IMG/VR virus record: IMGVR_UViG_3300029241_000080 | DNA length: 32,038 nucleotides | Reading direction: 5' to 3' (one strand) | DNA from: a virus | In this document: piece after piece, positions 2,142 to 32,038 of the stretch | Layout of the letters: every line of letters begins with the position of its first letter | Position numbering within the stretch: the stretch's first letter is position 1 | Made by a program: the position numbers and the translations under genes | The notes under the pieces: generated by a model | What the model was told of the DNA's origin: nothing | The model's input: only the letters and a program-made list of their open reading frames with translations | The model's database searches: none

Positions 2142-2968
2142 GCTGTCACCTCCGGCGTCGATGTGATGATGGTGTCGCCAGCCGCATAGGTAGCGCCGTT
2201 GTAGGTCGTATCCTCCGCCGCCTTAATTATGATCGTTGCATTGATAGCACCATTACGGATGTTTGATACGGCTGTATCAGCATCCGCTCCAGCAACATAG
2301 ATCTCTACGACCAGATTTTTGTTTGTGCAACCGCTAAACGTCGTTTTTGATGTCCTCGTGCACGGTTTTCCAACGCCACCGATTTTGCAGTTGACAAGCG
2401 CTGTGTTGCGACCGAGCGCGGCGTAAGAGCTGTCAGTACTGCCCTCGGTGAAAGCCACGCTACCATCGATAACGATATCTGTAAGGCTGCTGCACTTGTT
2501 GCACAAATTGTAGTGTATATTGCCATCCGCGTGGACTGTCAATTTGGTAATGCCGCCGCAATTTTGGAAAATGCCGCCGTTTGGATATTCTGTGACAAGC
2601 GCGAGGTCAACGTCTCCGAGGGCCAACGACTGAACATTGAAAAACGCTTTATCGCCGATTGACGTGATTGCACCAAAATCAACCCCGGTCAGCTCCTGCA
2701 AACTGACATTATTATGAAACGCGCGCGGGCCTATTGCTGTTATAGTCTGCTTTGCATTAACTTTTGCGAGGCGGTGGAAAGGATTATCCGCCTCATACTG
2801 GCACCCAAACTGCTCTACGCAAATTTGATGTCCGTAAAAGTCCACTACCGTGGCATACCCGTCCGCGTCTCGCGCCTTGACGACGATGCCGTCCGTGATA
2901 GCGTCTCCGCCTCCGCCGCCAGACCCGCCGCCGAGCCTGCGCGCAAGGATCACATCCTTTGCTGTCAC
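2138..2968 (-). CDS. BspA-type leucine-rich-repeat (LRR_5-like) protein, tail-associated
   Basis: Repeated IxxIGxxAFxxxxxLxxL units (TAIGPRAFHNNVSLQEL, ITSIGDKAFFNVQSLAL, and others). The start is set at GTG 2968, with GGAGGTG 5 nt upstream and a GTGA overlap with the stop of the upstream gene. GC is visibly lower than in the flanks. Confidence 0.7.
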   Translation of the reverse strand: MTAKDVILARRLGGGSGGGGGDAITDGIVVKARDADGYATVVDFYGHQICVEQFGCQYEADNPFHRLAKVNAKQTITAIGPRAFHNNVSLQELTGVDFGAITSIGDKAFFNVQSLALGDVDLALVTEYPNGGIFQNCGGITKLTVHADGNIHYNLCNKCSSLTDIVIDGSVAFTEGSTDSSYAALGRNTALVNCKIGGVGKPCTRTSKTTFSGCTNKNLVVEIYVAGADADTAVSNIRNGAINATIIIKAAEDTTYNGATYAAGDTIITSTPEVTA

Positions 2969-3165
2969 TTTGCCACCTCCGCCCAGCTGCCGTCGAGCGC
3001 CTTTTGCTTGATCTGATCGTACCCTGCCGTGTAGATGATCGTGCCGGCCGCCTGCTCGCGGCCGAGCGCTGCGTCGATCTCCGCGCCGGTCTTTGCCATG
3101 ATTGCCGCGCTTACCATGATCTCCGTGGGCACCCACGCGCGATTATCTGTGATTACATGATCCAT
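2965..3165 (-). CDS. Hypothetical small tail-module protein
   Basis: 66-aa ORF with GGAGGTG upstream of ATG 3165. Its stop overlaps the start of the LRR gene, which suggests translational coupling. Confidence 0.5.
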   Translation of the reverse strand: MDHVITDNRAWVPTEIMVSAAIMAKTGAEIDAALGREQAAGTIIYTAGYDQIKQKALDGSWAEVAK

Positions 3166-3207
3166 ATAGCACCTCCGTTTGCTTTTTGCTTGTCATACGA
3201 TGTCCCA

Positions 3208-10223: not shown

Positions 10224-10490
10224 TCACCTCACCACGATCTCAAGCCCGCCGTCCCGCGTCTCGTAGGTGCGCTCGACGATGTAGCGCCGGCCGCCATACT
10301 CGACAAATCGCTGGCCGTCATAGTCGCGCCAGTCGGCCAGCAGGAACTGCACCGACGGGTGCAGGCCAACGGCGGCCGCCTGGTAGTGCTCGGCGCGCGT
10401 GATGCTTTCGCGCCGGCAAAAAACCTCGTGGCTGCCGACGTCGTTGCCGCGCTCGTCGATCGCTACCAGCGTGATGATATCATCGTACAC
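10224..10490 (-). CDS. Head closure / head-tail adaptor protein
   Basis: 88 aa with a GTG start at 10490 and AAGGAGGGG upstream. Size, and position after the gp6-like connector gene, fit SPP1 gp16 / HK97 gp9-type proteins. Confidence 0.6.
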   Translation of the reverse strand: MYDDIITLVAIDERGNDVGSHEVFCRRESITRAEHYQAAAVGLHPSVQFLLADWRDYDGQRFVEYGGRRYIVERTYETRDGGLEIVVR

Positions 10491-10511
10491 ACGTGCCCCT
10501 CCTTTGCAGGT

Positions 10512-10528
10512 GTGTCCAAAATGGACAC
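10512..10528. repeat. 17-bp palindrome GTGTCCA-AAA-TGGACAC, copy b (intergenic)
   Basis: Exact match. The arms extend to 13 bp (10506-10534). It lies 7 nt upstream of the SD of the head-closure gene. Confidence 0.95.
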
Positions 10529-10544
10529 ACCTGCGCGTAGTTTT

Positions 10545-10832
10545 TTAGCCCTGCATCCGCTGCTTGCAGAGCCGATTGTTAATTTTTGCCCGCAGGTAGC
10601 GCGGCATTGCCAGTGTCGGCTGCTGCCTGCGCTCGTGCAGGTGCGCGGCGTACATCTCCAGCAGCAGCCGGTCGCCGGGGTCGTCCATATCCAGGACGAC
10701 GCCCTCGGTGCGCAGCATCTTGCCGGCGGCGGCGATCAGCGCCGCAAAGTACTCGTCGCGCTTGGTGTGCGTCACGCCGAGGTCGGCCTTGAGCAGCGCA
10801 AGCACCGTCTCGGCCGAGCTGACGTCCGCCAT
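10545..10832 (-). CDS. Head-tail connector protein (gp6-like)
   Basis: 95 aa immediately after the capsid gene, with a TAATG overlap. The helical N-terminus (LLKADLGVTHTKRDEYFAALIAAA) is typical of the Phage_connect_1 family. Confidence 0.65.
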   Translation of the reverse strand: MADVSSAETVLALLKADLGVTHTKRDEYFAALIAAAGKMLRTEGVVLDMDDPGDRLLLEMYAAHLHERRQQPTLAMPRYLRAKINNRLCKQRMQG

Positions 10833-16214: not shown

Positions 16215-16432
16215 GTCTCACGCTCCTTTTGTGTCCACTTTGGACACGCTCCCGGCCGCTGTTTGGCCGGGAAAGTTTCGCTTTTTCGCGCAAAATCTGC
16301 GCGTCCCGAAAAATTCGCCTCCAAGGTTTCCGTGCGCGCGCCCGATTGCTTTGTTCCCGCGCGATCCCCCCGCGCCGAAAACTCGGCGCGGTTGGAGAGA
16401 GTTCCCGGTGCCGGTCTTTGGAGACCGGCCAA
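16215..16432. other. Non-coding packaging region, candidate cos site
   Basis: 218-bp ORF-free gap between the HNH and terS genes. It is rich in short hairpins (CCGGCC-N7-GGCCGG, CGCGCCGA-N4-TCGGCGCG, CCGGTCT-N4-AGACCGG), contains repeated TTTT-CGCGC-type motifs, and ends in a G8 run. Confidence 0.5.
16231..16247. repeat. 17-bp palindrome GTGTCCA-CTT-TGGACAC, copy c (abutting the terS SD)
   Basis: Exact match. In minus sense it reads GTGTCCAAAGTGGACAC-AAAAGGAG-8 nt-ATG(terS). Confidence 0.95.
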
Positions 16433-17087: not shown

Positions 17088-17846
17088 CTACTCCTTGCGC
17101 GCTCGGCGCTCCGGCAGCAGATACACTATATAATCATAGCATCCAAACTCGTTTTGCTTGTGGTCCGTGTCCAGTATGTACGCGCCCGGCGGCGCCGTGA
17201 CCGTCACCGACTCGTCCACCATCTCGGACTCCTCGACCGGCTTGCGCAGGTTGCGGCTGGCGTTCCAACCGCGGTCTCCGACCGCGGTTGCCGGCGCGTC
17301 CGGGTTGCGCTCGTGGAGCAGGTACTGCGCCAGCTCCAAAAAATCATCATGCACATACATCTCCGTCTCGCCGATCGGCAGGATCTCGACGTTGTCGCCG
17401 TTTGGCCACAGCGCGCGGATGGTGTCGTAGTCTCCCGCGCCCGTCGCGCTGATGATCAGATGGTGGTGCAGTCTCCGGCTGCCATCGCTTTGCAGCTCCT
17501 GCGTCACGTACACATATCTCAGCTCTTTGCCCGATCTCCGGTACTGCCGGCGCATCCGATCAAAAAATGCGGCGACCTGCTTTTTTGCAGCCTTGCGGTT
17601 TGGCGGCAGATGCGCGTCGTCGTATGTAAGCGTCACATACAGGTCGCGGCGCGAAAAGTTGGCGGCGAGCTGCATCTGCAGTTTTTGATACGCAAAGCGA
17701 TAGTTAAGCTTTTTCCGCGCCGCCGTGGAGCACTTGGCCTTTTCGGCTCGCGCCCTCGGCGTATCCGTCGCCAGCACCTGCGTGTAGCACACAGCCCGCA
17801 CCAGCCGGCCGGCCGTCTGCTTTTTAAGCCTTTTTGTTTTTGCCAT
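17088..17846 (-). CDS. HUH-type rolling-circle replication initiator-like protein
   Basis: 252 aa from ATG 17846, with GGGAGG upstream. It has motif 1 YVTLTYDD and motif 2 LHHHLII (HUH), and downstream Tyr candidates (MYVHDD, LAQYLLHE). The 319-aa track ORF adds a spurious RRKLR repeat, which is the alternative frame of the tandem repeat. Confidence 0.65.
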   Translation of the reverse strand: MAKTKRLKKQTAGRLVRAVCYTQVLATDTPRARAEKAKCSTAARKKLNYRFAYQKLQMQLAANFSRRDLYVTLTYDDAHLPPNRKAAKKQVAAFFDRMRRQYRRSGKELRYVYVTQELQSDGSRRLHHHLIISATGAGDYDTIRALWPNGDNVEILPIGETEMYVHDDFLELAQYLLHERNPDAPATAVGDRGWNASRNLRKPVEESEMVDESVTVTAPPGAYILDTDHKQNEFGCYDYIVYLLPERRARKE

Positions 17847-18693
17847 CCATGCCTCCCAGGGTCGCAATAATCGCTTTTTCGCGCGGCGACAGCCTCCACG
17901 TTTCCGCCGCAGCTTTCTCCGCCGCAGCTTTCTCCGCCGCAGCTTTCTCCGCCGCAGCTTTCTCCGCCGCAGCTTTCTCCGCCGCAGCTTTCTCCGACAG
18001 AAGCAGGCCGCCGCCGAAAATGGCTTTTCCCGCGCGGCGCTGGTCATCGAGTGCTGCGATCAGCACGCAGTCCCCACGCCGCACCCGGAAATCGACGCCG
18101 TACTTGCTGTATCTTTGCAGCATCGCAGCGGTGACGATGTGATCCGGATAAATGTACTTTGGTTTTGTGGCCGTCGTCATCGCTTTGATCTTTTTTACCG
18201 CCTCGGCGATCTTTGCTCCGAGATCCGGCGCGGTCTGCGCCACGATATCACCGCCATAGCTTGTCACAAAGGCCGTCTTAACGTGCGCGCCGTTTTCGTA
18301 AACTATGTCCGCGTCGCAAATGACGTGGTTCATCCGCATCGCCACATTTTTACCAGCAAGTGCCGTAAGACTCGGCGCAAAAAGGAAAAACGCGATGCCG
18401 CGGCTAAGATAAAAATTACAGATTTGTGACAGGATCGAAAACGGAGGATTGTCAAGAACGACACAGCCGTCCGGGTAGTCAAACGCCTCGTAGTCTCCGC
18501 CCGGATAAAACGGGCGGACGATACTGCCCGGATCGATACCATACTGCTCGCACGCCCAGTCGCGGATGGCATCGTAGACAAGCGGCGGCGTGTAGCAGTC
18601 GTCCGTCGTCTTTTTGGGCTCAAACTTTGCGACAAAATCGTCGTACTCTGGGTTGTCGGCAAAAAGCGACGTTTGTAAATTTTGGCTGATGAT
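17824..18693 (-). CDS. N6-adenine DNA methyltransferase (gamma-type order, TPP ... DNPPF) with C-terminal (AAEKA)n repeat
   Basis: Motifs CYTPPLVYDAI and VVLDNPPFS are present. There is no in-frame ATG, GTG or TTG between the upstream stop (18750) and the catalytic motifs. The start is tentatively ATC 18693, 6 nt after AAAAGGA. The upstream part of the 393-aa track ORF is an Arg/Gly-rich off-frame read. Confidence 0.65.
   Translation of the reverse strand: MISQNLQTSLFADNPEYDDFVAKFEPKKTTDDCYTPPLVYDAIRDWACEQYGIDPGSIVRPFYPGGDYEAFDYPDGCVVLDNPPFSILSQICNFYLSRGIAFFLFAPSLTALAGKNVAMRMNHVICDADIVYENGAHVKTAFVTSYGGDIVAQTAPDLGAKIAEAVKKIKAMTTATKPKYIYPDHIVTAAMLQRYSKYGVDFRVRRGDCVLIAALDDQRRAGKAIFGGGLLLSEKAAAEKAAAEKAAAEKAAAEKAAAEKAAAETWRLSPREKAIIATLGGMDGKNKKA
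17904..17993. repeat. Perfect 15-bp tandem repeat x6 (CCGCCGCAGCTTTCT)
   Basis: Six identical head-to-tail copies. They are in frame in the methyltransferase gene and encode (AAEKA)6. Confidence 0.95.
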
Positions 18694-20488: not shown

Positions 20489-21023
20489 GGCCGGCCTCCT
20501 GCTCGTCGATTAAAAATTGATGATGTTGCAGAAGCTCAAAGGCAGCCTGCAGCAGTATATCATCACAACAGTCGATGTCGCGCAGCGGACACTTGTCACA
20601 GTTTTCCTTGCTGGCGCCGATGCAAAGCCGTAACGTATCCATGACCTCGTCGCGTGTCATGCCGTTAAAATCCCAGCGCCCGCCGACGACGCCGCGGATT
20701 TTGCCCTCGCGTGTCGTCGCAAGCGTCCACCTGTAATAGCGCGCAGACTTGATGTCATACGTCGGCTTGCCGGTGTACTCCACCAAAAGGTGCTCAATCC
20801 GTGCACCTTTGGAGTCCTCCCAGCCCGGCAAAAACGCGACTGCATCCGCGCTGTCCAGCTGCGCAAAGCTGATGCGCATATAGTCGGCGTTGCTCATGCC
20901 CTCCGGCTGCATGGCCGGGTTGATGGGCGTGTGGCCGGCATCGGCGATGTCCGCCGCGGCGCGGGCAAACTTGGCCTTATAGTACGGGTCTCCGGTGATC
21001 TTACCTGCTATGTAGATTTTCAT
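20478..21023 (-). CDS. DUF4406-like (nucleoside 2-deoxyribosyltransferase-like fold) protein with Cys-rich C-terminal domain
   Basis: 181 aa from ATG 21023, with GGAGGA upstream and an ATGA overlap onto the ParB-like stop. MKIYIAGKITGDP...FLPGWEDSKGARIEH matches the DUF4406 pattern. Confidence 0.7.
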   Translation of the reverse strand: MKIYIAGKITGDPYYKAKFARAAADIADAGHTPINPAMQPEGMSNADYMRISFAQLDSADAVAFLPGWEDSKGARIEHLLVEYTGKPTYDIKSARYYRWTLATTREGKIRGVVGGRWDFNGMTRDEVMDTLRLCIGASKENCDKCPLRDIDCCDDILLQAAFELLQHHQFLIDEQEAGHGK

Positions 21024-22279
21024 GCGTCGTCCTCCTTTTTGTACTCGCGCTGCGGCAGCGCCGTAAAGTGCGGGTTGTCCGTCCGGCAGAGCAGATAGTC
21101 CGTGGTCACGCCGAGGATGTCGGCGGCCGCGACCAGCGCGTCGAGCGACTCGACAGCCACACTCCTGTAAGGCGCCCAATACGTGCCGCCACTCGCAAGC
21201 CCAGCCACAGTGGTGTGCAGCGCCTCGGCGACCGCCTCCTGCTCTCCGTATGCGGCGAGCGCGTGCGTCAGTCTGCCCCAGTAGATGCGGCACTTGCTCT
21301 CGCGCTCCCCGCGGCGCTTGGCAGCCTCGTCGTTCGCGCGCTGCTCGGCCTCGGCCTTATCCTCGCGGAGCTGCAGGTGCCTGTCCTTGGCGACCTTGCA
21401 GTACTTGTCGCACGTAGCGATGTCGTAGCACTCCATGCAGCAGGTGTGCTCGCAGCTGCGCATGTAGTTGCCGGTCGTCTTTTGCAGCGATTTGACCATG
21501 TTGCCGCACGGGACGCCGCATGCATACTTGCACTTGCGGGCGGCGAGACTGTCGCGGTCGCTCAGGATGCGCTCGGCCTCGCCGCAGCGCATGGCGACCA
21601 GACCGTCCTGGCCGTTGCCCTTGACCTTGGCGATCAGTTGCTGGTCGTCCGCGGAGCACTTGGCGATCTCGTAGGCCACGCTCTCGGGCATGCGGCCGTC
21701 GTCATAGTACTGCTTAATCTGCGGGATCAGCTTGGTCTTGATCGTGTCCAGCCGTGCGATCTTGGACGCCGAAATATTGCACGCGCTGGCGACGTAGTCG
21801 CGCATCCGGCCCGGGAACTCGTAGCCATGGGACTTGAGGCCGTACAGCAAATCGCGCACACGGTCGACCTGCTTGGAGGTCTCCGCCGAGGTCAGCACGC
21901 GCGTCGCGCTGTTGGCCTGGATCAGCATCAGCTCCTCCATCAGGTCGTCGCCCGGGTCGCGCACAAAGCACGGCGTCGTCTCAAACGGCTTGGTGTCCTC
22001 GGCGAGATGGTCGTCCAGGATCGTCATCAGCGCGCGGTGGCGCCGGTGGCCGGAGATGATGATGTAGCCCTCGCCGTCGCCGGACGGCCGGACGGTTAGC
22101 GGGTCGAGCAGCCCCTGCATCAGGATGCTGTCGATCAGGTCATCGACCTTGGAGGTGTCGTAAAAATTTTTGTCGTTTGCGAAAATCTTGCGCGTAGGGA
22201 TCATCTGCAGCCTGCGCTCGGCCGGCTTGGCAGCGCCCTCTGGCGGCTTGATGTAGTCCGCGAGGTTAAAATTACTCAT
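21020..22279 (-). CDS. parB: ParB N-terminal domain protein (partition/nuclease-like) with Cys cluster and C-terminal XRE-type helix
   Basis: 419 aa from ATG 22279. It has a ParB-box region (LIDSILMQGLLDPLTVRP...YIIISGHRRHRAL) and nine Cys between aa 250 and 294. The C-terminus LGVTTDYLLCRTDNP is typical of HTH_3 ends. It lies directly downstream of parA. Confidence 0.75.
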   Translation of the reverse strand: MSNFNLADYIKPPEGAAKPAERRLQMIPTRKIFANDKNFYDTSKVDDLIDSILMQGLLDPLTVRPSGDGEGYIIISGHRRHRALMTILDDHLAEDTKPFETTPCFVRDPGDDLMEELMLIQANSATRVLTSAETSKQVDRVRDLLYGLKSHGYEFPGRMRDYVASACNISASKIARLDTIKTKLIPQIKQYYDDGRMPESVAYEIAKCSADDQQLIAKVKGNGQDGLVAMRCGEAERILSDRDSLAARKCKYACGVPCGNMVKSLQKTTGNYMRSCEHTCCMECYDIATCDKYCKVAKDRHLQLREDKAEAEQRANDEAAKRRGERESKCRIYWGRLTHALAAYGEQEAVAEALHTTVAGLASGGTYWAPYRSVAVESLDALVAAADILGVTTDYLLCRTDNPHFTALPQREYKKEDDA

Positions 22280-23042
22280 CGTCTGCCGCCTCCTTGCCCA
22301 GGTACTCGTCCACAAAATCGCGGTAGTCGCGGGCGGCCGCGCACCAGCGGCTGTATGTGCTGATCGGCTGGCGCGCGAAGGTCGCCTCGTCCATCTTGTC
22401 CGTGCGGCGGATCGTGGTCTCAAACACCGGCACATCCATGGCGCGCAGGTACTGCTCGCCCTGCGTCACGACCGGCGCGTTGTGCCACATCGTCACCAAC
22501 ACACCGGCGATCCGGATGCCGCTGCGCACCGTCTGCACGGCGCGGATCTGCGCCGTCAGCTCGTCGATGCCGGAGATGGCAAAGGCGTCGACCTTGGCCG
22601 GGATGATGATGTCGTCGCTGACGGAGATGCCCGCGATCGACACCGCCGTAAAGCCCGGCGGGCAGTCGATGATGACATAGTCATAGTCCGACTCGTCGCG
22701 CATATCGCCGACAAAGTCCGCAAAATTTTGGATCAGCTTGGCGTCCGCGGTCGCCGCCGCGACGTCGAGCTGCAGCAGGTCCATGCTGGCGGGGATGATG
22801 TCCACGCCGTCGACCTGCGTCATCCAGCAGTAGCTGTCCCACGCATCCGGATGCGTAAACACGTCGCAAAGCTTCACCGGCGCATTTTCGCCGCCATAAA
22901 AGCGGGTCGCGTTGGCCTGCGGGTCTGCGTCGATCAGCAGCACGCTCTTGCCGTGCTCCGTCGCCAGGATGCTGGCCATGTTGATGGCGGTAGCGGTCTT
23001 GCCGACACCGCCCTTGAGATTTACAATGCTGATAACTTTCAT
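22272..23042 (-). CDS. parA: ParA-family partition ATPase
   Basis: Deviant Walker A (NLKGGVGKTATAINMA), LLIDADPQANAT and IIDCPPG motifs. 256 aa. Confidence 0.92.
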   Translation of the reverse strand: MKVISIVNLKGGVGKTATAINMASILATEHGKSVLLIDADPQANATRFYGGENAPVKLCDVFTHPDAWDSYCWMTQVDGVDIIPASMDLLQLDVAAATADAKLIQNFADFVGDMRDESDYDYVIIDCPPGFTAVSIAGISVSDDIIIPAKVDAFAISGIDELTAQIRAVQTVRSGIRIAGVLVTMWHNAPVVTQGEQYLRAMDVPVFETTIRRTDKMDEATFARQPISTYSRWCAAARDYRDFVDEYLGKEAADDE

Positions 23043-23323: not shown

Positions 23324-24627
23324 GGCAGTTCGCCTCCTCCCTCCGCGGTGCGCGGCCATGCCTGCATCCGCGGCCAGTCGTCCTCGTCGTCGTGGTCGGC
23401 ACGTGTGTCCATTTTGGACACCGCCGGCAGCATACGCAGATGCGCCGCGTCAAAGACCAGCTCGATCGCGCCGCGCTCTCCCTCTTTGTTTTTGACGATC
23501 GACAGCACCCGGTCGCCGCCGGGCTGCGCCGCGAGGATCATGATAGCGTCTGCGTCCTGCTCCAGCTGGCCGGACTCGCGCAGGTCCGACATCGACGGTG
23601 TGCGGCTGCGTGCCGTGCCTTTTTCGGGGCGCGACAGCTGCGACAGCGCGATCACGGCGATGCCGGTCCGCTGCGCCATCGTGTGCAGCGCGAGCGAGAT
23701 GTTGGTCACCTGCTCGACGCGGGTGTTGCCCTTGGCCTGCAGCAGCTGTACGTAGTCGATGACGATCACGTCGTACCGCCGCGCCATGGCGACCGCCTGC
23801 ACATCGGCGACGCCGAAACCGCCAGCGCGGATGACATCAAGGTTGATGTGCTCCGCCGTCCGGATCGCGGTCGTCGCGGAGGCATAGTCCTCGGCGATCA
23901 TCTGATTGCGCTTGATGCGCCCGAAGTTGATGCCCTGCACCTGTGCCACCATGCGGTCGTACAGCTTGGCGTCCGATGTCTCAAGGCTAAAAATCCCGAC
24001 GCGCAGACCGCTGCGCGCCATGTGCATCGCAAACTGCGTCGCCAGCAGCGTCTTGCCGCTGCTCGGCAGGCCGCCGAGGATGATCAGGTCGCCGCGCTCG
24101 GCGTAGAGCCTCTCGTCCAGCTGCCGGATGCCCCAGCGGAGATAGTCCGGCTGATGCCCATCGGCGTGGCGCTGGTAAAACTCGCACAGTCCCTGATGCC
24201 AGCTGACGACGCGCAGCGTCTTGCTGTCGCACAGGCACTCGCTCGCCGTCTCGACGGCCGCGCGCGCCTCGTCCAGCGTCACCGCGTCGAGCATCTTGGA
24301 CGCCGCATCCTTGATGCGCGCAAGCCTTGCCTGATCGCGCATCACGTCGGCATATGCCTCCCAGTGCGCCGCCGTCGGTGTGTCGTCCATGATCTGCACC
24401 AGCATCTGCCGATATGCATCGCCCAGGCGGTGCAGCACCGTGACCACGTCGACCGTCTGACACGCGGACCACTGTGCGCGGATGGCATCGTACACGTGCC
24501 GGTACTCCGGCGTCAAAAAGTCCTCCGCTGAGACGCGCAGCATCACGTCGCCGACGATCTCCGGCGAGATCAGCACGCTGCCGATCACGGCCGCCTGCGC
24601 ATCGATCAGTGTCTGCTTTACGTCCAT
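23320..24627 (-). CDS. dnaB: Replicative DNA helicase DnaB
   Basis: 435 aa from ATG 24627. It has a DnaB N-terminal domain, Walker A (GGLPSSGKTLLATQFA), Walker B (VIVIDYVQLL), SQLSRPEK and the RESGQLEQDAD motif. Confidence 0.93.
   Translation of the reverse strand: MDVKQTLIDAQAAVIGSVLISPEIVGDVMLRVSAEDFLTPEYRHVYDAIRAQWSACQTVDVVTVLHRLGDAYRQMLVQIMDDTPTAAHWEAYADVMRDQARLARIKDAASKMLDAVTLDEARAAVETASECLCDSKTLRVVSWHQGLCEFYQRHADGHQPDYLRWGIRQLDERLYAERGDLIILGGLPSSGKTLLATQFAMHMARSGLRVGIFSLETSDAKLYDRMVAQVQGINFGRIKRNQMIAEDYASATTAIRTAEHINLDVIRAGGFGVADVQAVAMARRYDVIVIDYVQLLQAKGNTRVEQVTNISLALHTMAQRTGIAVIALSQLSRPEKGTARSRTPSMSDLRESGQLEQDADAIMILAAQPGGDRVLSIVKNKEGERGAIELVFDAAHLRMLPAVSKMDTRADHDDEDDWPRMQAWPRTAEGGGELP
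23405..23421. repeat. 17-bp palindrome GTGTCCA-TTT-TGGACAC, copy d (3' end of dnaB, upstream of the par operon)
   Basis: Exact match. It encodes V-S-K-M-D-T in the DnaB C-terminal tail. Confidence 0.95.
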
Positions 24628-25512: not shown

Positions 25513-25800
25513 TCACACCACCCTCATGCCGGGGTAGTACTCCGGCACCGCGTTTTTGATCGGCCGGCCGCGCTTGCGCTTTTCCGGCTGCGGCTTCTGG
25601 CGCGGCTGCGGTGCGCAGACGGCTGCCGGTGCCGCTGCGATGCGGCAGCGCTCGACGTAGGCGTCTACGTCCGACTGGTAGTAGCGCAGCGACTTGCCCA
25701 GCTTGTAGCACGGCAGCTCGCCGTCCGTCACAAGCCGCCCGACGGACGACCGCGAGATCGACAGCTGATCGCACACGTCCTTAGTCGTCAGCATGGCCAT
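25513..25800 (-). CDS. Excisionase-family / MerR-like HTH DNA-binding protein
   Basis: 95 aa from ATG 25800, with GGAGGGG upstream. MLTTKDVCDQLSISRSSVGRLVTDGELPCYKLGKSLRY matches the HTH_17 (excisionase-type) pattern, and the C-terminus is basic. Confidence 0.7.
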   Translation of the reverse strand: MAMLTTKDVCDQLSISRSSVGRLVTDGELPCYKLGKSLRYYQSDVDAYVERCRIAAAPAAVCAPQPRQKPQPEKRKRGRPIKNAVPEYYPGMRVV

Positions 25801-26251
25801 CCTCGTCCCCTCCTTTTGCGTACTTAAGCTGCATCGCCGCCTGCACGATCCCGTCGAGCTCGCGTGTGATCCGCTCGAAGTCCGGTCGCTCGTCCTGGTC
25901 GATGCGGCCATCCTCGGCAATGTCAACGAGGCGGTCGATGCGGTGCGAGCTGTCAAAGTCGCGGATCCGGCGCAGCAGCTGGATCACGGCCTGCGGCAGC
26001 GCGATGGTGTCCACCTGCGGCAGCAGGTCGGCCGCGACGCGGCTCTTGTTGAGCAGATGCCAGTAGCCGAGCACCGGCGCGCCGGGCACCTCGACCATCC
26101 GCGTCACGACGTCGTCAGACGGCATCCCGCGCCCGGACTCGTACAGGCGCACGCTCTCGACGGAGATGTCCAGCGCCTCCGCCCAGCGCTCCTGCGTCAT
26201 GCCGGCAATGCGCCTGCCGGTTTGGCTGATATTGTGGTAGTTGTGCTGCAT
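25781..26251 (-). CDS. XRE-family HTH transcriptional regulator
   Basis: 156 aa. MTQERWAEALDISVESVRLYESG is an HTH_3 motif, followed by a C-terminal helical domain. It is in the early operon. Confidence 0.75.
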   Translation of the reverse strand: MQHNYHNISQTGRRIAGMTQERWAEALDISVESVRLYESGRGMPSDDVVTRMVEVPGAPVLGYWHLLNKSRVAADLLPQVDTIALPQAVIQLLRRIRDFDSSHRIDRLVDIAEDGRIDQDERPDFERITRELDGIVQAAMQLKYAKGGDEDGHADD

Positions 26252-26258
26252 GGTGTTT

Positions 26259-26474
26259 TTACGCCTCCATTGCTAAGATACTGGTATCGAGTTTGTTGCG
26301 CAGCTCCTCAATGCGCAGTGCTTCTAGCTCCGCCGTAGCAAGCACTTTGCGGAGCGTTTCGTCCATCTCCGGCGGCCTGTCGGGCACGCTGAGTAATACC
26401 TTGCGCAAATTAAGGATGTATTCGTTTTGTGCCTGTAACGCCAAGCTAAAGACAAAGTCAACGGTAACAGACAT
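26259..26474 (-). CDS. Hypothetical early protein
   Basis: 71-aa ORF with AAAGGAG 6 nt upstream of ATG 26474. It is the second gene of the early operon. Confidence 0.5.
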   Translation of the reverse strand: MSVTVDFVFSLALQAQNEYILNLRKVLLSVPDRPPEMDETLRKVLATAELEALRIEELRNKLDTSILAMEA

Positions 26475-26495
26475 GTTTTTGCTCCTTTCTGCCGG

Positions 26496-26687
26496 TCAGG
26501 CCGGCGCTTTGTACAGGTCGTCGATCGTGCAGCTCAATGCCGCCGCGATCGCGGGGAGCTTGGATGCCGGCGGGTAAGACTTGCCGGACTCCCATGCAAC
26601 GACGGCCGTGCGACATACGCCAACCTTTGCCGCCAAATCCGCTTGTGTAAGGCCTGCAGCCTTACGGGCGATGATAATTCCGTGCAT
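26496..26687 (-). CDS. Cro-like XRE-family HTH regulator
   Basis: 63 aa containing AAGLTQADLAAKVGVCRTAVVAWESGKSYP (HTH_3). It is the first gene of the leftward operon, divergent from the repressor gene. AGGAGGTG lies 5 nt upstream. Confidence 0.8.
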   Translation of the reverse strand: MHGIIIARKAAGLTQADLAAKVGVCRTAVVAWESGKSYPPASKLPAIAAALSCTIDDLYKAPA

Positions 26688-26708
26688 AAAAACACCTCCT
26701 GCTGGGCG

Positions 26709-26800
26709 AATGTCATAGTTTGCGACCTTGCAAACAGCAATGTCACCGTTTATGACATCATTTTACCCCCAAAAAACGCAAATGTCAATATCTTTGTCAT
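26709..26800. promoter_or_regulatory. Operator-like repeats of the genetic switch
   Basis: The palindrome ATGTCA-N7-TGACAT (26740-26758) overlaps the predicted early transcription start. There are further (A)ATGTCA copies at 26709, 26781 and 26794. The palindrome GTTTGC-N6-GCAAAC lies at 26718-26735, and TTGCAAAC recurs at 26819. Confidence 0.5.
26760..26788 (-). promoter_or_regulatory. Early (cro-side) sigma-70-type promoter TTGACA-17-TAAAAT
   Basis: Read on the minus strand, the -35 element TTGACA is at 26788..26783 and the -10 element TAAAAT at 26765..26760, with an exact 17-nt spacer. It lies about 70 nt upstream of the cro-like ATG. Confidence 0.7.
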
Positions 26801-26818
26801 TATTTTTTTGTCCGGATA

Positions 26819-26847
26819 TTGCAAACGTCAAAAATTGTGACTATTAT
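26819..26847 (+). promoter_or_regulatory. Repressor-side sigma-70-type promoter TTGCAA-17-TATTAT
   Basis: The -35 element is at 26819-26824 and the -10 element at 26842-26847, with a 17-nt spacer. The first start codons (GTG 26856, ATG 26859, ATG 26865) lie only about 9-18 nt after the -10, so the mRNA has a very short leader or none. Confidence 0.65.
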
Positions 26848-26855
26848 TTGATCGG

Positions 26856-27812
26856 GTGATGAAAATGCAAAATCTTAGGTATCTGCGCGACGCAAAAAAT
26901 ATTACGCAGAGCAAGCTGGCCGGCATGCTATCGGTGGCCAGGACGACGGTGACCATGTGGGAGACCGGCGACCACGAACCGGGACTTAAAACAATGCAAA
27001 AGGTGGCCGACATGTTCGACGTCCCGGTCGAGTTTTTGGGCGGAACTGGAATTTTTGAGAATTGGGACACCATCGTTGACCACTTTGCGGAGATATACGA
27101 TGCGATAAGCAGCGACATACCGGCGGACCTGTACATGCACAATTTTTCGGGCGAAATCACTTTAAAAAGTTGGCTGCTTAAAATTATGGTGTACGGCAAG
27201 CAAGACCTCGCAATAATTAATTGGTTTAAATTTGCAATCGCAAGCGTCGATTTTGAGGCGGGAGACGACGGTGGCACGGCCACGCACGTCGTATACACAA
27301 AGCAGTTTGCGTCAATAATTAAAATGCATACCAGTAAATATTTGAGTAGTGAGACGGCGCGCATCGTGTCCTATGATGATGCAATGCGGAATTTTATGGA
27401 CGCGCACGCCCCAGGTGATGCGATTAGAATCCCCGTCCTTGGATACGTAGCAGCCGGGATCCCGATCGAAGCGATCGAGGACATCGTCGGCTGGGAGGAC
27501 ATCTCCAAGGTGCGGTATGGTAGCGGCGAGTACTTCGGCCTGCAGATACAGGGGCACAGCATGGAGCCCAAGATCTCGGACGGCGACACCGTCATCGTCC
27601 GCCGCCAGCCGGACGTGGAAAGCGGAGACATCGCCGTCGTGCTTGTCAACGGCGACGACGCGACGGTCAAAAAAGTCAAAAAGAGCCCGCAGGGCGTGAC
27701 GCTGATACCCAGCAATCCCGCCTACGAGCCCATGTACTACACAAACGCAGAGATCGAGAGCTTACCCGTGCAGATCCTCGGCCGTGTGGTCGAGCTGCGC
27801 GCAAAATTTTGA
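26856..27812 (+). CDS. Prophage repressor, LexA/cI-like: XRE HTH plus S24 peptidase with an extra central domain
   Basis: The N-terminal HTH_3 is NITQSKLAGMLSVARTTVTMWETG. The C-terminal S24 domain has the cleavage-site-like YVAAGIP, catalytic Ser in QGHSMEP and Lys in ATVKKV. About 130 aa of AT-rich sequence lies between the two. The start is ambiguous (26856, 26859 or 26865). Confidence 0.88.
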   Translation: MMKMQNLRYLRDAKNITQSKLAGMLSVARTTVTMWETGDHEPGLKTMQKVADMFDVPVEFLGGTGIFENWDTIVDHFAEIYDAISSDIPADLYMHNFSGEITLKSWLLKIMVYGKQDLAIINWFKFAIASVDFEAGDDGGTATHVVYTKQFASIIKMHTSKYLSSETARIVSYDDAMRNFMDAHAPGDAIRIPVLGYVAAGIPIEAIEDIVGWEDISKVRYGSGEYFGLQIQGHSMEPKISDGDTVIVRRQPDVESGDIAVVLVNGDDATVKKVKKSPQGVTLIPSNPAYEPMYYTNAEIESLPVQILGRVVELRAKF

Positions 27813-27814
27813 TT

Positions 27815-27831
27815 GTGTCCAAAGTGGACAC
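27815..27831. repeat. 17-bp palindrome GTGTCCA-AAG-TGGACAC, copy e (between the repressor stop and the HIRAN SD)
   Basis: Exact match. It starts 3 nt after the repressor TGA and abuts GGGAGGAG. Together with copy f it forms a 21-bp perfect inverted repeat (27814-27834). Confidence 0.95.
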
Positions 27832-27848
27832 GGGAGGAGAGTCAAAAA

Positions 27849-28625
27849 ATGAAAAAGTGGTATCAGTACTGGACAGTCTGGGTGGCGATTGCACTGCTTG
27901 CTGGGTCTTGGGTGCCCGTATGGATCTTTGGCAATCAGGCGAGCGACGTTGTGCTCGGCGCTATCGTCTACGCGCTGGCGTTGGTTTCCATTGTGTTTTT
28001 TGTCGTGTTTGCTGTGCAGTATAATCGCGCAAAAAAGGCGGCGCGCGAAGCTGCCGACGCAGCGCACGCTGCCGAGCTGCGCGAGCAGTGGGCGCAAAAG
28101 CAGGCGGACGCAGCCGCATCCAAGGCAGCAGCCGAAAAAACGCCCGCAAAGCCCCGCGCAAAGTTTGAGCGCCACAAGGTCGCCGGCACGTCCTACCATC
28201 TGGATGCGATCATGGAGCTGGCCGAGGATAACCCAGACTACGACATGACACAGCGTGAGATTATCGACGACGGCCTGACCGACGAGCGCATCTATCAGTA
28301 TACTTTTACCGACGGGCCGGTCGAGCTGGTCGATGACCCGGGCAACGAGTACGACCCCAACGCCATCAAGGTGCTGGTCGCCGGGCAGCACATCGGCTAC
28401 ATCAAGCGCGGCAGCACCGGCCGCGTCCATAACCTGCAGCGCACCGGGCGCGTGCTCGGCGTCACGGCAGAGATCTACGGCGGCAAGTACAAGGTGGTGA
28501 TCTGTGACGACGACGATGACGGCGCAGAGCACTACGATCTGATCAGAGACGAGACGGGATACGGCGCAGCCATCGAGATCCTCGTCCGCCCGGAGCAGGA
28601 GCCCGTGTCCACTTTGGACACATAA
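27849..28625 (+). CDS. Membrane-anchored HIRAN-domain protein (lysogeny-module accessory gene)
   Basis: 258 aa from ATG 27849, with GGGAGGAG upstream. It has two N-terminal TM helices (WTVWVAIALLAGSWVPVWIF, VVLGAIVYALALVSIVFFVVFAV) and an Ala/Lys/Glu-rich linker. The C-terminal HIRAN-like motifs are KVAGTSYH ... LVDDPGNEYDPNAIKVLVAGQHIGYIKR. Confidence 0.75.
   Translation: MKKWYQYWTVWVAIALLAGSWVPVWIFGNQASDVVLGAIVYALALVSIVFFVVFAVQYNRAKKAAREAADAAHAAELREQWAQKQADAAASKAAAEKTPAKPRAKFERHKVAGTSYHLDAIMELAEDNPDYDMTQREIIDDGLTDERIYQYTFTDGPVELVDDPGNEYDPNAIKVLVAGQHIGYIKRGSTGRVHNLQRTGRVLGVTAEIYGGKYKVVICDDDDDGAEHYDLIRDETGYGAAIEILVRPEQEPVSTLDT
28605..28621. repeat. 17-bp palindrome GTGTCCA-CTT-TGGACAC, copy f (last codons of the HIRAN gene)
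   Basis: Exact match. It encodes V-S-T-L-D-T followed by the stop. The 21-bp sequence at 28602-28622 is the exact reverse complement of 27814-27834. Confidence 0.95.
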
Positions 28626-28631
28626 CAGTAA

Positions 28632-28667
28632 GCGCCCGGTGCAGTCACACCGGGCGCGAACTTTTAC
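28632..28667 (+). terminator. Intrinsic terminator after the HIRAN gene
   Basis: A 10-bp GC-rich stem GCGCCCGGTG/CACCGGGCGC (28632-28641/28648-28657) is followed by GAACTTTTAC, a weak U tract. Confidence 0.5.
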
Positions 28668-28673
28668 GAAGCT

Positions 28674-29843
28674 ATGCAAAATTATCTTAAAAAAAAGATT
28701 AAGGACGAGCGCGGCGTGTATATCGCCGTCTACGGCAAGACGCCGCAGGAGCTGGAGCGCAAGGTCGCCGAGCGCCTGGTCGAGGTCGAGCGCCGCACGC
28801 AGCTCGCGGAAAATCCGCTTGTGTGGCAGTATGCGCAGGCATGGTACAAGCTGTACACGCCGCGCCTGAGCGACAGCCGCAAGTCGGACTATGCCATCGC
28901 CATCAACCGCCACATCTGTCCCATCATCGGCGCGCGGCATATGCTCGACGTGACGCCGGGCGACATCGCCGACGTCATGCTGGCCTGTGCGGATCTGTCG
29001 CGCAGCTCGCAGGACAAGATCGTCTGCGCGCTTAAAAAAATTTTTTCCGCGGGCGAAAAGGCCGGCATCGTGCGTGTAAATCCGTGCGTGGATCTGCGCG
29101 CAGGCGGAAAGCGTGCAGCGGAAAAAGAGGCGCTTACCCGCCAGCAGATGCGCACGCTGGAGGACGCGGTCGCTGGCACGCGCATCTATCCCTTTGTGAT
29201 GATCGGGCTGTACGCCGGGCTGCGCCGCGAGGAGATTCTCGGCCTGCAGTGGGACTGCGTGCACCTCGACGGCGCCGCACCGTACATCTCCGTGCGCCGC
29301 GCGCTGCGCTGGGTGCACAATCAGCCGGTCGTCTCGGGCGAGCTCAAGAGCGCGGCCGCCAGGCGCGACGTGCCAATCCCGCCCACGCTCGTCGGCTGCC
29401 TCGCCGACCTGCAGCGCACCGCGACCGGAGACTATGTCATCAGCAGCAGCGACGGCCAGCCGTGGAGTATGACGGCGTACCGCAACGCCTGGCGGTACAT
29501 CACGCGCCGCCAGACCGGCACGGCCAAGCGCACGGAGCGCGGCGAGACCGTGCTCCGCGAAAAAAAGCTCGGCGAGACCGTGCGTAACTCGCGCGTGCGG
29601 ATCACGATCGACTTTGCCGTAACGCCGCATATCCTGCGCCACACATACATCACAAACCTGATCCTGGCCGGTGCAAACATCAAGGTGGTGCAGTATCTGG
29701 CCGGGCACTCCAAGGTGGAGACAACGCTCAACATCTACACGCATCTCATTGAGCGCAGCCCGGTGGCCAATCTCGGCGCGGTGCTGGCAGCTTTCCCCGC
29801 GCCGGAAATCTCGGAAAATATATCCCCAAAAATATCCCCATGA
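28674..29843 (+). CDS. int: Tyrosine integrase
   Basis: 389 aa carrying the catalytic signature GLRREEILGL (Arg), HILRHTYITN (His-x-x-Arg), LAGHSKVETT and NIYTHL (Tyr). It is adjacent to the attP-like region. Confidence 0.92.
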   Translation: MQNYLKKKIKDERGVYIAVYGKTPQELERKVAERLVEVERRTQLAENPLVWQYAQAWYKLYTPRLSDSRKSDYAIAINRHICPIIGARHMLDVTPGDIADVMLACADLSRSSQDKIVCALKKIFSAGEKAGIVRVNPCVDLRAGGKRAAEKEALTRQQMRTLEDAVAGTRIYPFVMIGLYAGLRREEILGLQWDCVHLDGAAPYISVRRALRWVHNQPVVSGELKSAAARRDVPIPPTLVGCLADLQRTATGDYVISSSDGQPWSMTAYRNAWRYITRRQTGTAKRTERGETVLREKKLGETVRNSRVRITIDFAVTPHILRHTYITNLILAGANIKVVQYLAGHSKVETTLNIYTHLIERSPVANLGAVLAAFPAPEISENISPKISP

Positions 29844-29882
29844 CGCCGCAGCGGGCACAAAATATCCGCTTTTTTATCCCCA
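29820..29882 (+). repeat. Arm-type direct repeats (ATATCCCCA family), left of the att core
   Basis: ATATCCCCA at 29820-29828 and 29832-29840, ATATCCGC at 29862-29869, and TTATCCCCA at 29874-29882, all in the same orientation. The first two overlap the integrase 3' end. Confidence 0.6.
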
Positions 29883-29924
29883 CGCAGAGGGCATACTGAC
29901 GCAATGCGGGCGCACTGCAAAACG

Positions 29925-29964
29925 CAAAAAACCCGGCAATCTCAATGGATTGCCGGGTTTTTTG
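29925..29964. terminator. Bidirectional intrinsic terminator
   Basis: An 11-bp stem ACCCGGCAATC/GATTGCCGGGT (29931-29941/29948-29958) is flanked by an A6 run on one side and a T-rich run on the other. Confidence 0.75.
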
Positions 29965-29965
29965 C

Positions 29966-30012
29966 TGGTGGACGATACAGGACTCGAACCTGTGACCCTC
30001 CGCACGTCAAGC
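29966..30012 (-). other. attP core candidate: 3' portion of a tRNA gene (anticodon loop to CCA)
   Basis: The minus strand reads GC-TTGACGT-GCGGA-GGGTC-ACAGG-TTCGAGT-CCTGT-ATCGTCC-A-CCA. This gives the anticodon-stem 3' half, variable loop, T arm, acceptor 3' half and CCA. No matching 5' acceptor or D arm is present upstream, so it is a fragment. The loop TTGACGT would imply a GAC (Val) anticodon, with low confidence. Confidence 0.65.
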
Positions 30013-30071
30013 ATGGTGTGCATTGCCACTATGCATTGGTATTACTGCATTGCGAGATATGGCGCAAATAT

Positions 30072-30091
30072 ATATCCCCATGATTATCCCT
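30072..30091 (+). repeat. Arm-type direct repeats, right of the att core
   Basis: ATATCCCCA at 30072-30080 and TTATCCCT at 30084-30091. The extended match TATCCC-ATG-C-CCGCAG also occurs at 29834-29851. Confidence 0.55.
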
Positions 30092-30107
30092 ATGCCACCG
30101 CAGTTTG

Positions 30108-30923
30108 TCATTTGATTTGCTGATACAGTATCCTGACTCGCTTCCCTCGCTGCTGTAGTATCCGTTGCACACGATTGTAATCTTTGACAGATATGATGGG
30201 CGCGTGACATCCCTTGTACAACTGGCCCTTATAGCTGTTGTAGCCAGCATATACCGGACAGATAAGTATCCGCCGGATTGATTCGGCAGTCTGTACTCTA
30301 CCGCGTTTCCCGGTGTAGCCGCGCAATCTGCACAGCTCGGCAACGGCCGACAGATTGCGATATTCCAAGTAACGATCAAAAATATACCGCACGCGCTCCG
30401 CTTCCGCCGGGTTGATCTTCAGGCTGTCCTTGCCATCGAGGTCATAGCCAAGGACTTCATTGCACGTCCGCTTTCCCTGCGCTGCCCGTTCGGCAATCGC
30501 CGCGCTGACACGTTCTGCCGTAAATTCTCGTTCCATCTGAGCAAAAATCCCGAGCATGCCCATCATTGCGCGCCCGGTCGGCGTGGTCGTGTCAAAAGCC
30601 TCTGTGTAGCTAATTAACCCGCAGTTGTGCGTCGCAAACAGATCCCACACGCTGTATAGGTCAGCAACGCTGCGCGTCAATCGGCTGAGCGCCCAGACGC
30701 ACACAACGTCGATTTCTCCGGCCTGCACATCGGATAGCAGCTGCAGCATTGCCGGTCGATGCTTGATGTCCTTCGCGCTGATCCCTTCGTCCGCATACAC
30801 GCCGGTTACATCATAGGCGCGGCCATTGCACCACTGCATCAAGCTCTTGCGCTGGGCGGCGAGGGAATATCCCTCTGCCGCCTGCTCGCTCGTTGATACA
30901 CGGATATAGATTGCCGCACGCAT
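30108..30923 (-). CDS. Serine recombinase, short form (resolvase catalytic domain plus recombinase domain, no zinc-ribbon/coiled-coil)
   Basis: 271 aa. The catalytic region is AAIYIRVSTSEQ...YADEGISAK...VWALSRLTRS, and a recombinase-domain-like part follows (...RRILICPVYAGYNSYKG...HAPIIS...). The ORF stops immediately after this, about 95 bp from the tRNA fragment. Confidence 0.85.
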   Translation of the reverse strand: MRAAIYIRVSTSEQAAEGYSLAAQRKSLMQWCNGRAYDVTGVYADEGISAKDIKHRPAMLQLLSDVQAGEIDVVCVWALSRLTRSVADLYSVWDLFATHNCGLISYTEAFDTTTPTGRAMMGMLGIFAQMEREFTAERVSAAIAERAAQGKRTCNEVLGYDLDGKDSLKINPAEAERVRYIFDRYLEYRNLSAVAELCRLRGYTGKRGRVQTAESIRRILICPVYAGYNSYKGQLYKGCHAPIISVKDYNRVQRILQQRGKRVRILYQQIK

Positions 30924-31921: not shown

Positions 31922-31949
31922 GCCGCCGGAGCACTTACGCTCCGGCGGC
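31922..31949. terminator. Terminator shared by the lysis operon (minus) and the HTH gene (plus)
   Basis: An 11-bp stem GCCGCCGGAGC/GCTCCGGCGGC has a 6-nt loop. In minus sense it is followed by TTTGTGATTTTAAATTT. It lies downstream of the holin stop across the circular junction. Confidence 0.75.
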
Positions 31950-32038
31950 CTTACTTTGCCCAATTATTTATTATCCGTCAGCTGCTTCACGCTCTGATTC
32001 AGCCCCGTCGCCGCCCATCCGGACACGATGCCGACGGC
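31940..32038. repeat. Terminal direct repeat, right copy (duplicate of 1-99)
   Basis: Identical to bases 1-99. Implies a unit genome of 31,939 bp. Confidence 0.95.

Follow-up and report, generated by a model that had tools for sequence, protein, structure and literature searches.

A 17-bp palindrome associated with ParA and ParB is dispersed through an integrating gut phage and brackets a variable cargo gene

The repressor-integrase junction and its repeated palindrome

The viral record IMGVR_UViG_3300029241_000080, a stretch of 32,038 nucleotides that was analyzed at its full length and is called the window here, contains a gene for a HIRAN-domain protein enclosed between two 21-bp inverted repeats. 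The window is a circular assembly of 31,939 bp with a 99-bp exact terminal redundancy (1-99 = 31940-32038), and it represents the genome of a temperate tailed phage of 31.9 kb with a G+C content of about 61%. The HIRAN-flanking repeats belong to a group of six palindromes in this genome that, in related phages, accompany the genes for a ParA ATPase and a ParB-family protein, and they are probably dispersed binding sites of the phage's own ParB.

At the junction, a CI/LexA-like repressor gene (26856-27812, plus strand; HTH_3 and Peptidase_S24 domains) ends in a TGA stop codon at 27810-27812. After a gap of 1 nt comes the left repeat, TGTGTCCAAAGTGGACACGGG (27814-27834), which abuts the Shine-Dalgarno (SD) sequence of the HIRAN gene; this SD, GGGAGGAG, and the ATG start codon at 27849 lie on its 3' side, an arrangement that an earlier sequence-only reading of this DNA had described correctly. 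The stretch TTTTGATT directly precedes the left palindrome. The HIRAN gene itself (27849-28625, plus strand, 258 amino acids) matches the Pfam HIRAN family at 5.5e-7, with 29.8 bits against a cut-off of 24.7. The right repeat, CCCGTGTCCACTTTGGACACA (28602-28622), is the exact reverse complement of the left one, so that the perfect 21-bp inverted repeat first reported is real; it forms the last seven codons of the gene (PVSTLDT), not six as had been counted, and is followed by TAA. A GC-rich terminator-like hairpin (28632-28657, plus strand) stands 3' of this cargo gene and is kept in all relatives regardless of what the cargo is. The gene for a tyrosine integrase (28674-29843, plus strand) comes after it.

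The core of both repeats is the palindrome GTGTCCA-N3-TGGACAC, with a 17-bp family consensus of GTGTCC-RNNNY-GGACAC. It starts at 6 positions in the window (4184, 10512, 16231, 23405, 27815, and 28605), compared with 0.07 copies expected from shuffled sequences for GTGTCC-N5-GGACAC with at most 1 mismatch, and 0.8 for a looser pattern. Copy 1 (4184-4200) is inside a tail protein gene (3208-5151, minus strand), where it is translated as VSKVDT close to the point at which the conserved N-terminal region ends. Copy 2 (10512-10528) is in the head/tail block, in the gap between the open reading frames (ORFs) at 10224-10490 and 10545-10832, just upstream of an SD and a GTG start codon; it is nested in a 29-nt perfect palindrome, GCAGGTGTGTCCA-TTT-TGGACACACCTGC, with 13-bp arms, in the region 10499-10541. 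Copy 3 (16231-16247) ends 16 nt upstream of the start codon of terS, at the start of the packaging/late block, and copy 4 (23405-23421) encodes VSKMDT in the nonconserved C-terminal tail of DnaB, about 360 bp upstream of parA, which makes it the site nearest to the parAB operon in the window. Copies 5 (core 27815-27831, GTGTCCAAAGTGGACAC) and 6 (core 28605-28621) are those within the left and right repeats.

Since any two copies of a palindrome are inverted with respect to each other, the repeats on either side of the HIRAN gene are mutually inverted as well, and the inverted repeat can be seen as a by-product of the repeated palindrome. The pair had been set apart from the other copies by 4 extra flanking bases. 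The GGG/CCC portion of this extension is indeed specific to the pair, but the T flanks one side of all six copies; other pairs of copies match over 19 to 20 bases, which places the extension of this pair within the range of chance. On the left the GGG belongs to the SD, and on the right it is a proline codon. The opposite 3-nt centers (AAG versus CTT) are likewise present in the window but do not hold in relatives, where the left center is AAG, AAA, or AAT and the right one stays CTT. With flanks outside the 17-mer that differ as well (GGAG, CGGG, or TGG versus CCT or CCC), the inverted repeat is often imperfect in these phages. The HIRAN pair is therefore not clearly special among the six copies.

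Three of the six copies are intergenic and directly 5' of an SD (those of the HIRAN gene, terS, and the head/tail block), two are in dispensable C-terminal tails (DnaB and HIRAN), and one is inside the tail protein gene; the copies in coding sequence all read in the frame V-S-x-x-D-T. Among nonredundant sites in the family, 46% have an SD and start codon within about 55 nt downstream, compared with 12% of random positions. We read these positions as places where the genome tolerates 17 fixed bases, although regulation could also explain them.

Association of the palindrome with ParA and ParB

A scan of viral contigs for the palindrome, followed by clustering of all their ORFs, recovered at least 120 loci, many of them with 2 to 5 copies. 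The top co-occurring clusters were a ParB-like protein of about 470 amino acids and a 256-amino acid ParA, each found in 26 of these loci, with the large terminase level with both in number of loci. Among the matches listed for the at least 120 loci, 31 loci carried parA and/or parB, and in about 15 of the 31 the site was at the parA-parB junction or directly after parB, the junction being its commonest position.

The reverse search, in which ParB homologs were collected by alignment and the motif was ignored, gave 80 loci whose ParB is 27% to 41% identical to that of the window. Exact sites were present in 71 of them, for a total of 145 sites in 1.25 Mb, where our own estimate from the 14 specified bases is about 0.005 sites by chance; the relaxed consensus extends this to 76 loci. 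ParA was found in 75 of the 80 loci, and every other protein of the window, including DnaB, Cro, a 156-amino acid helix-turn-helix (HTH) protein, and the replication initiator, in at most 35. As a control, 80 loci were gathered through homology to DnaB, with a comparable G+C range and a replication module of the same kind. Of these, the 8 that also encode a ParB homolog contained 17 sites in 140 kb, and the 72 without ParB contained a single site in 1.14 Mb, on a contig that ends inside parA.

The link extends into the parB gene itself. The consensus N-terminus of the ParB family, VSKxDT, is the palindrome translated, and thus most family members have a site built into the 5' end of parB. Two ParB-positive loci (L243 and L249) have no exact sites, and a search of them for a replacement palindrome gave only degenerate copies of the same site. 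Distant homologs of the HIRAN protein (33% to 44% identity, in L142-L147) are without palindromes around them, indicating that the site belongs to the phage backbone and not to the HIRAN gene. Relatives of the window ParB were present in at least 123 viral contigs, and a single-protein scan of genome contigs found only three, all from metagenome-assembled genomes (MAGs). Across the family, the palindrome is exclusively associated with ParAB and its positions are conserved. Family sites are found 5' of terS and of int, within parB, and on either side of a slot for swappable defense genes. GTGTCC-N5-GGACAC can serve as a searchable marker of a widespread ParA/ParB module in integrating gut phages.

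Selection on the half-sites and possible alternative functions of the palindrome

At orthologous sites, namely those 5' of terS, those in the tail of DnaB, and those following the repressor gene, the outer arms GTGTCC and GGACAC are unchanged, while the inner five bases vary (AAAGT, GAATT, AAATC, GAATC, and others) and the flanks drift too. For copy 3, the outer arms are invariant in 12 relatives, and both the inner 5 bp and a neighboring GC hairpin vary. Copy 2 is also conserved in relatives, with its 4-bp extension kept with some mismatches (cggc/gccg, cggt/accg). Because the arms stay fixed as inner bases, flanks, and the adjacent hairpin drift, selection appears to act on the sequence of the two half-sites and not on their pairing alone, a pattern that fits a dimeric DNA-binding protein.

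This pattern bears on the possibility that the palindromes are RNA-level punctuation, forming hairpins in the transcript that influence stability, processing, or attenuation between cistrons. Each copy does fold as a 7-bp hairpin in the transcribed strand (the arms reach 13 bp in copy 2), the preference for positions just ahead of an SD described above is what such elements might show, and in one relative, L140, the left site at the HIRAN gene is replaced by a different GC hairpin. A constraint on structure alone would, however, allow compensatory drift, whereas the 12 outer bases are identical in phages that share only 27% to 40% identity in ParB. Variants in a single arm are found in either strand sense at one and the same locus (G.T at one site and A.C at another), so that no RNA strand is consistently used, half of the sites in the window are inside ORFs, and a search of the window against Rfam found no match. 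Such a role would also leave the exclusive association with ParAB unexplained, and we regard it as quite improbable.

The palindrome could instead be the operator of another regulator, such as the CI-like repressor, Cro, the 156-amino acid HTH protein (25781-26251), or a host factor. Its size is typical of dimeric HTH operators, and the early region encodes several HTH proteins. Among these candidates the CI-like repressor is unlikely: only its C-terminal ~174 residues (the S24 half) align to relatives in which the palindrome is nonetheless unchanged, and in L121 the repressor has, as read from the sequence, a different N-terminal HTH region. Cro is only 57% to 78% identical between relatives that share an identical palindrome, and for both proteins the cI-cro switch region (26688-26855), which contains no copy, argues against the assignment. 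The 156-amino acid protein is detectable in only 29 of 76 site-bearing ParB loci. A host factor is difficult to reconcile with the DnaB-related gut phages of the control set, which have similar G+C but are nearly free of sites when ParB is missing. Taken as a whole, an operator for any of these regulators seems very unlikely. Spo0A boxes, DnaA boxes, LexA/Cheo boxes, TnrA sites, and N4-type hairpin promoters were considered too, and none fits the GTGTCC/GGACAC arms.

The ParB protein as the proposed binder

The parA gene (22272-23042, minus strand) encodes a ParA-type Walker ATPase of 256 amino acids (Pfam AAA_31 at 6e-40, CbiA, and ParA; PHROG 164, "ParA-like partition protein"). It overlaps the start of parB by 8 nt, so a Walker-type ParA directly adjoins the ParB-family gene (21020-22279, minus strand, 419 amino acids), the product of which is the proposed palindrome binder and has a ParB/Srx N-domain (Pfam ParB_N at 2.4e-8) and a ParB-type HTH. 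The N-domain carries the GxxRxxA arginine patch as GHRRHRA, a predicted pocket for cytidine triphosphate (CTP). Residues G77, H78, R79, R80, and A83 are invariant in 30 ParB homologs, as are N123 and R127 of a box III-like segment, QANSATR, and these invariant residues correspond to the nucleotide pocket. In an AlphaFold2 model of the window ParB (mean predicted local distance difference test score, pLDDT, of 81), the first ~190 to 240 residues superpose on the Caulobacter crescentus ParB-parS complex 6t1f (template modeling, TM, score 0.75), on KorB 8qa9 (TM score 0.72), and on Noc, with 196 to 234 aligned columns for 6t1f and 8qa9. Both the HTH segment and the site are strongly conserved in the family.

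Downstream of the HTH the protein continues with seven invariant cysteines (C250-C294), a long helix, and an XRE-type C-terminal segment. The cysteines are possibly zinc-binding, and the XRE-like C-terminus ends in DYLLCRTD in the window, where the family has DYLLxRTD. The parAB genes are in the block that is transcribed away from the repressor switch together with cro and the replication genes, so ParB would be made after infection or induction.

We think it likely that the palindromes are dispersed, parS- or KorB operator-like binding sites of this ParB, and the association described above is what suggests binding. In this proposal, the ParA-ParB module of the early/replication region would have the 17-bp palindrome as its cognate site, and ParB dimers would recognize the two GTGTCC half-sites through the ParB-type HTH. 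By analogy with CTP-dependent ParB and KorB clamps, ParB could load at the sites and spread from them. The sites themselves would be placed where they are tolerated, in short intergenic gaps 5' of an SD or in dispensable protein tails, and the HIRAN pair marks both boundaries of the slot that holds, between repressor and integrase, a cargo of fixed orientation. The outcome of loading might be to partition the excised or replicating circle, to regulate genes in the manner of KorB (the late block, int, or the cargo, for example), or both; spreading that depends on CTP, like any role in silencing, partition, or recombination, is an inference.

Several observations weigh against ParB as the binder or against a partition role for it. 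The connection between ParB and the site is one of association, and because ParA always accompanies ParB the two are not statistically separable. The canonical ParA-activating motif, (L/F/I)G[KR]G(L/F/I), is absent from the N-terminus of the window ParB, MSNFNLADYIKPPEGAAKPAERR, although a conserved FNLAD peptide might substitute for it; the ParA-activating or -binding motif is defined elsewhere as LG[KR]G[LFI] (PMC12704722). The window also has no site at its parA-parB junction, and its ParB N-terminus has lost VSKxDT. A comparison of HTH residues of ParB with site variants found no clean co-variation, and A/T and G/C variants at site positions 7 and 11 co-occur within single loci. The pair can be dispensed with at the cargo slot, given that the left site is replaced in L140 and the right site has a mismatch in L229. 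Finally, relatives integrate at a tRNA-Val gene, so a classical plasmid-partition role is not obviously needed.

A more specific and rather speculative version, which we consider unlikely, is that, in a large family of temperate phages of gut Oscillospiraceae, ParB serves purposes beyond partition at its sites, perhaps as a KorB-like CTP clamp. Made early after induction, it would insulate or silence the prophage's defense cargo from the sites around the slot, and these sites, identical in otherwise diverged phages, would double as joints for cassette exchange. What can be described is a set of dispersed palindromic sites linked to a ParB-type system in an integrating gut phage, two of which bracket a swappable, defense-like cargo slot.

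Comparison with known ParB systems

The nearest analog of the palindrome and ParAB module appears to be the KorB/IncC system of plasmid RK2 (RP4). RK2 has a 13-bp palindrome in the form of 12 dispersed OB operators, of which OB3 is the partition site with the related sites dispersed around the plasmid (PMC3597684), and KorB works as a sliding clamp that depends on CTP and exerts silencing at a distance (PMC11790492). The two systems share a ParB-family protein with a ParA partner and an odd-length palindrome (6-1-6 in RK2) at many places in the replicon, near to and far from promoters. KorB has a dual role in partition and global regulation, and the resemblance of the window ParB to it is in predicted fold. 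The site differs in sequence and is 17 bp long (6-5-6 or 8-1-8), the setting is an integrating tailed phage of a Gram-positive gut host and not a conjugative plasmid, and no KorA-like clamp-locking partner was identified. The window ParB also has an additional Cys-rich domain and the XRE-like C-terminus that KorB does not.

Among phages, the SopAB system of N15 reportedly has four dispersed inverted repeats as centromeres and a side role in late-gene expression. N15 resembles the window in being a temperate phage with a ParA/ParB-type system and inverted repeats scattered among phage genes, and the side role in late-gene expression has a possible counterpart in the site directly upstream of terS. 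N15 is said to be an obligate plasmid prophage without an integrase, whereas the window has a tyrosine integrase and a relative integrated at tRNA-Val. Its Sop system is of type Ia with a large SopA, in contrast to the short 256-amino acid ParA here, and the site sequences are unrelated. In actinobacteriophages, parABS is said to replace the integration cassette, leaving an extrachromosomal prophage, with parS repeats clustered beside the operon. These reported systems are likewise prophage-encoded parA-parB pairs with cognate repeats, but in the window parAB coexists with an integrase and the sites are dispersed.

The ParB (Spo0J)-parS system of Firmicutes likewise uses several palindromic sites in dispersed positions, including one within the coding sequence of parB (spo0J), and its ParB combines, as here, an HTH domain with a ParB/Srx N-domain that carries an arginine patch. 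Firmicutes parS is a 16-bp sequence, TGTTNCACGTGAAACA, which is unrelated to GTGTCC-N5-GGACAC, and the LG[KR]G[LFI] motif is, as mentioned, missing here.

A 2025 survey estimated that about 1% of ParB homologs are prophage-encoded, and found that divergent ParB-like proteins, which are frequent on plasmids and prophages, are almost always orphans without a ParA-binding motif (PMC12704722). A literature search that included full-text queries for the letters of the motif found no description of this ParB family or its site. Functions of ParB-family CTP switches outside segregation, as in KorB, VirB, and Noc, are an active topic, and an integrating phage with 2 to 7 dispersed sites would be a new setting in which to ask what use a virus makes of ParB.

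A variable cargo slot between the paired palindromes

Comparison with related phages shows that the palindromes next to the repressor and integrase are the edges of a variable slot of fixed orientation, in which the cargo is replaced between the sites. Five relatives (L121, L122, L128, L132, and L135) have the same palindromes, repressor 3' end, hairpin, and integrase but a different cargo. In L121 this alternative cargo (1335-2824) consists of a DEDDh exonuclease with a BRCT-like C-terminus, a PADLOC candidate (PDC-S48, 6.5e-29), and a Cys-rich protein of 176 amino acids; in relatives of this type the stop codon of the cargo lies just ahead of the right site. When HIRAN-type and exonuclease-type relatives are compared, their similarity breaks off precisely at each palindrome's inner edge. 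The window's own HIRAN protein gave a marginal PADLOC match only (PDC-M03B, 5.7e-4) and was not called a known defense gene; its N-terminus has a hydrophobic stretch that, read from the translation, is predicted to span the membrane.

A second lineage (L185, L177, and L180), with a ParB about 37% identical to that of the window, has the order CI-like repressor, 151-amino acid gene, palindrome, and cargo. In L185 the cargo (1846-3021) is a gene for an HSDR_N nuclease-like protein, and a second palindrome, present in L185 only, stands on its other side. In L180 the cargo (1944-3317) is a DUF4041-T5orf172 protein, followed by the integrase with no second palindrome. Homology among the three resumes at the first base of the palindrome next to the swapped cargo. 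The palindrome offers a practical handle for locating a hypervariable cargo slot in these prophages. The suggestion that the pair marks a cassette is borne out in a limited sense, in that the similarity stops at the inner palindrome edges and the cargo differs, but the repeats are genome- and family-wide and tied to ParAB and are not specific to a cassette.

L140, whose HIRAN gene is diverged, has an unrelated GC hairpin, GCGCCCCGTCTGGGGCGC (3960-4000), where the left palindrome would otherwise stand, 5' of that gene.

These sharp edges raise the question of whether the palindromes act as joints for cassette exchange, short identical crossover points by which units of palindrome, SD, gene, and palindrome are swapped; such a function would be compatible with ParB binding. 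The break in similarity at the inner edges, the fact that both cargo ORFs run up to or into the right palindrome, and the resumption of homology at base 1 of the palindrome beside HSDR_N and DUF4041-T5orf172 cargo in the second lineage are all in line with this idea. Homology breakpoints are also found within 12 bp of a site in 44 of 2,675 cases, compared with an expectation of 11.8 ± 3.4. This enrichment of ~3.7x, however, equals the ~3.8x enrichment of the sites at gene starts and is therefore not separable from a gene-boundary effect, offering no proof of a recombination hotspot. Ordinary recombination in the conserved repressor 3' end, terminator, and integrase outside the palindromes would give the same picture, L180 has its left junction away from any palindrome, a 17-bp match is short for homologous recombination, and the sites are not accompanied by a dedicated recombinase. 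We regard exchange at the palindromes themselves as possible but doubtful.

Two other mobile-element interpretations were rejected. A transposon or an insertion like a miniature inverted-repeat transposable element (MITE) is not supported, as the bases outside the repeats (...TTTTGAT and TAACAGT...) are not a direct repeat and leave no target-site duplication, and the repeats belong to the conserved backbone in relatives with other cargo. An integron-type cassette, which would have a long imperfect attC-like palindrome and an IntI integrase with attI, does not fit palindromes that are perfect and only 17 bp long, an integrase that pairs with a tRNA-Val attP, and a locus with no cassette array.

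Fixed orientation of the cargo gene

The sequence-only reading had proposed that a recombinase inverts the segment 27835-28601, uncoupling the HIRAN gene from read-through from the repressor promoter and so acting as an ON/OFF switch. The proposal drew on a perfect 21-bp inverted repeat around exactly one gene and on the presence of both a serine recombinase and a tyrosine integrase within 1.5 kb, and the serine recombinase gene (30108-30923) does lie 1.49 kb away. To assess orientation, we used relatives recovered through ParB, HIRAN, and the junction pattern, comprising 7 viral and 10 metagenome contigs, with the understanding that assemblies show the majority orientation only. In the 7 viral contigs HIRAN is on the same strand as the repressor and integrase, the 10 metagenome contigs have the normal outer flank (ATAAC and the hairpin), and an inverted segment was found in 0 of the 17 assemblies. 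The orientation of the cargo is fixed in this sample. Related phages were also found to carry the same repeats around unrelated genes, one of the outcomes that had been named beforehand as refuting the switch.

Other features of the repeats point the same way. Their flanks and centers are not kept complementary in relatives, and the palindrome occurs 4 more times in the genome and in hundreds of loci without a paired arrangement. Serine invertases act on 12-2-12 sites with a 2-bp crossover and tyrosine recombinases on sites with a 6- to 8-bp spacer; a 7-3-7 (or 6-5-6) palindrome with a 3-nt center fits neither. The serine recombinase has no homolog in the at least 120 motif-bearing loci and is of the large-serine-integrase type, its best PHROG match being the N-terminal part of such integrases, and the tyrosine integrase has a site of its own, the tRNA-Val attP. 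Known inversion switches (Hin/Gin/Cin, Fim, and the "invertons" of gut bacteria) likewise have inverted repeats around a short segment with a recombinase gene nearby. The present locus differs from them in showing a single orientation, in a repeat architecture that is wrong for inversion, in repeats that are not unique to the segment, and in a recombinase that is neither invertase-type nor linked to the repeats. At the level of assemblies the inversion switch is largely refuted, there is no sign of phase variation, and we consider it extremely unlikely that the HIRAN gene is controlled in this manner.

Attachment site, hosts, and minor features

The attP core (29966-30012, minus strand) lies in a 95%-identical alignment and matches, over 47 nt, the 3' part of the tRNA-Val gene adjoining the integrated relative L229. 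This relative is integrated beside tRNA-Val (2825-2901 of L229) in a MAG contig binned as Collinsella; a second relative is binned as Subdoligranulum, and ParB homologs are labeled Oscillospiraceae. A blastn search of 26400-30200 against phage GenBank matched the tRNA-like att region only and gave no annotated close relative.

The serine recombinase (271 amino acids, minus strand; Resolvase and Recombinase domains) sits across attP from the tyrosine integrase. It has no zinc-ribbon or coiled-coil region and looks like the N-terminal portion of a large serine integrase.

Six tandem 15-bp units, TCCGCCGCAGCTTTC, are found at 17888-18007 inside a REP_ORF2/G2P-like replication-initiator gene (17088-18047, minus strand). 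These could be iterons, with an origin inside the initiator gene, or a mere peptide repeat. In the predicted RNA fold of 27807-27848, UUUUGAUU, around the repressor stop codon, pairs with AGUCAAAA, just 5' of the HIRAN AUG. The pairing encloses the palindrome hairpin and the SD, and both segments are conserved in HIRAN-type relatives, suggesting that the modeled fold may be a translational control element.

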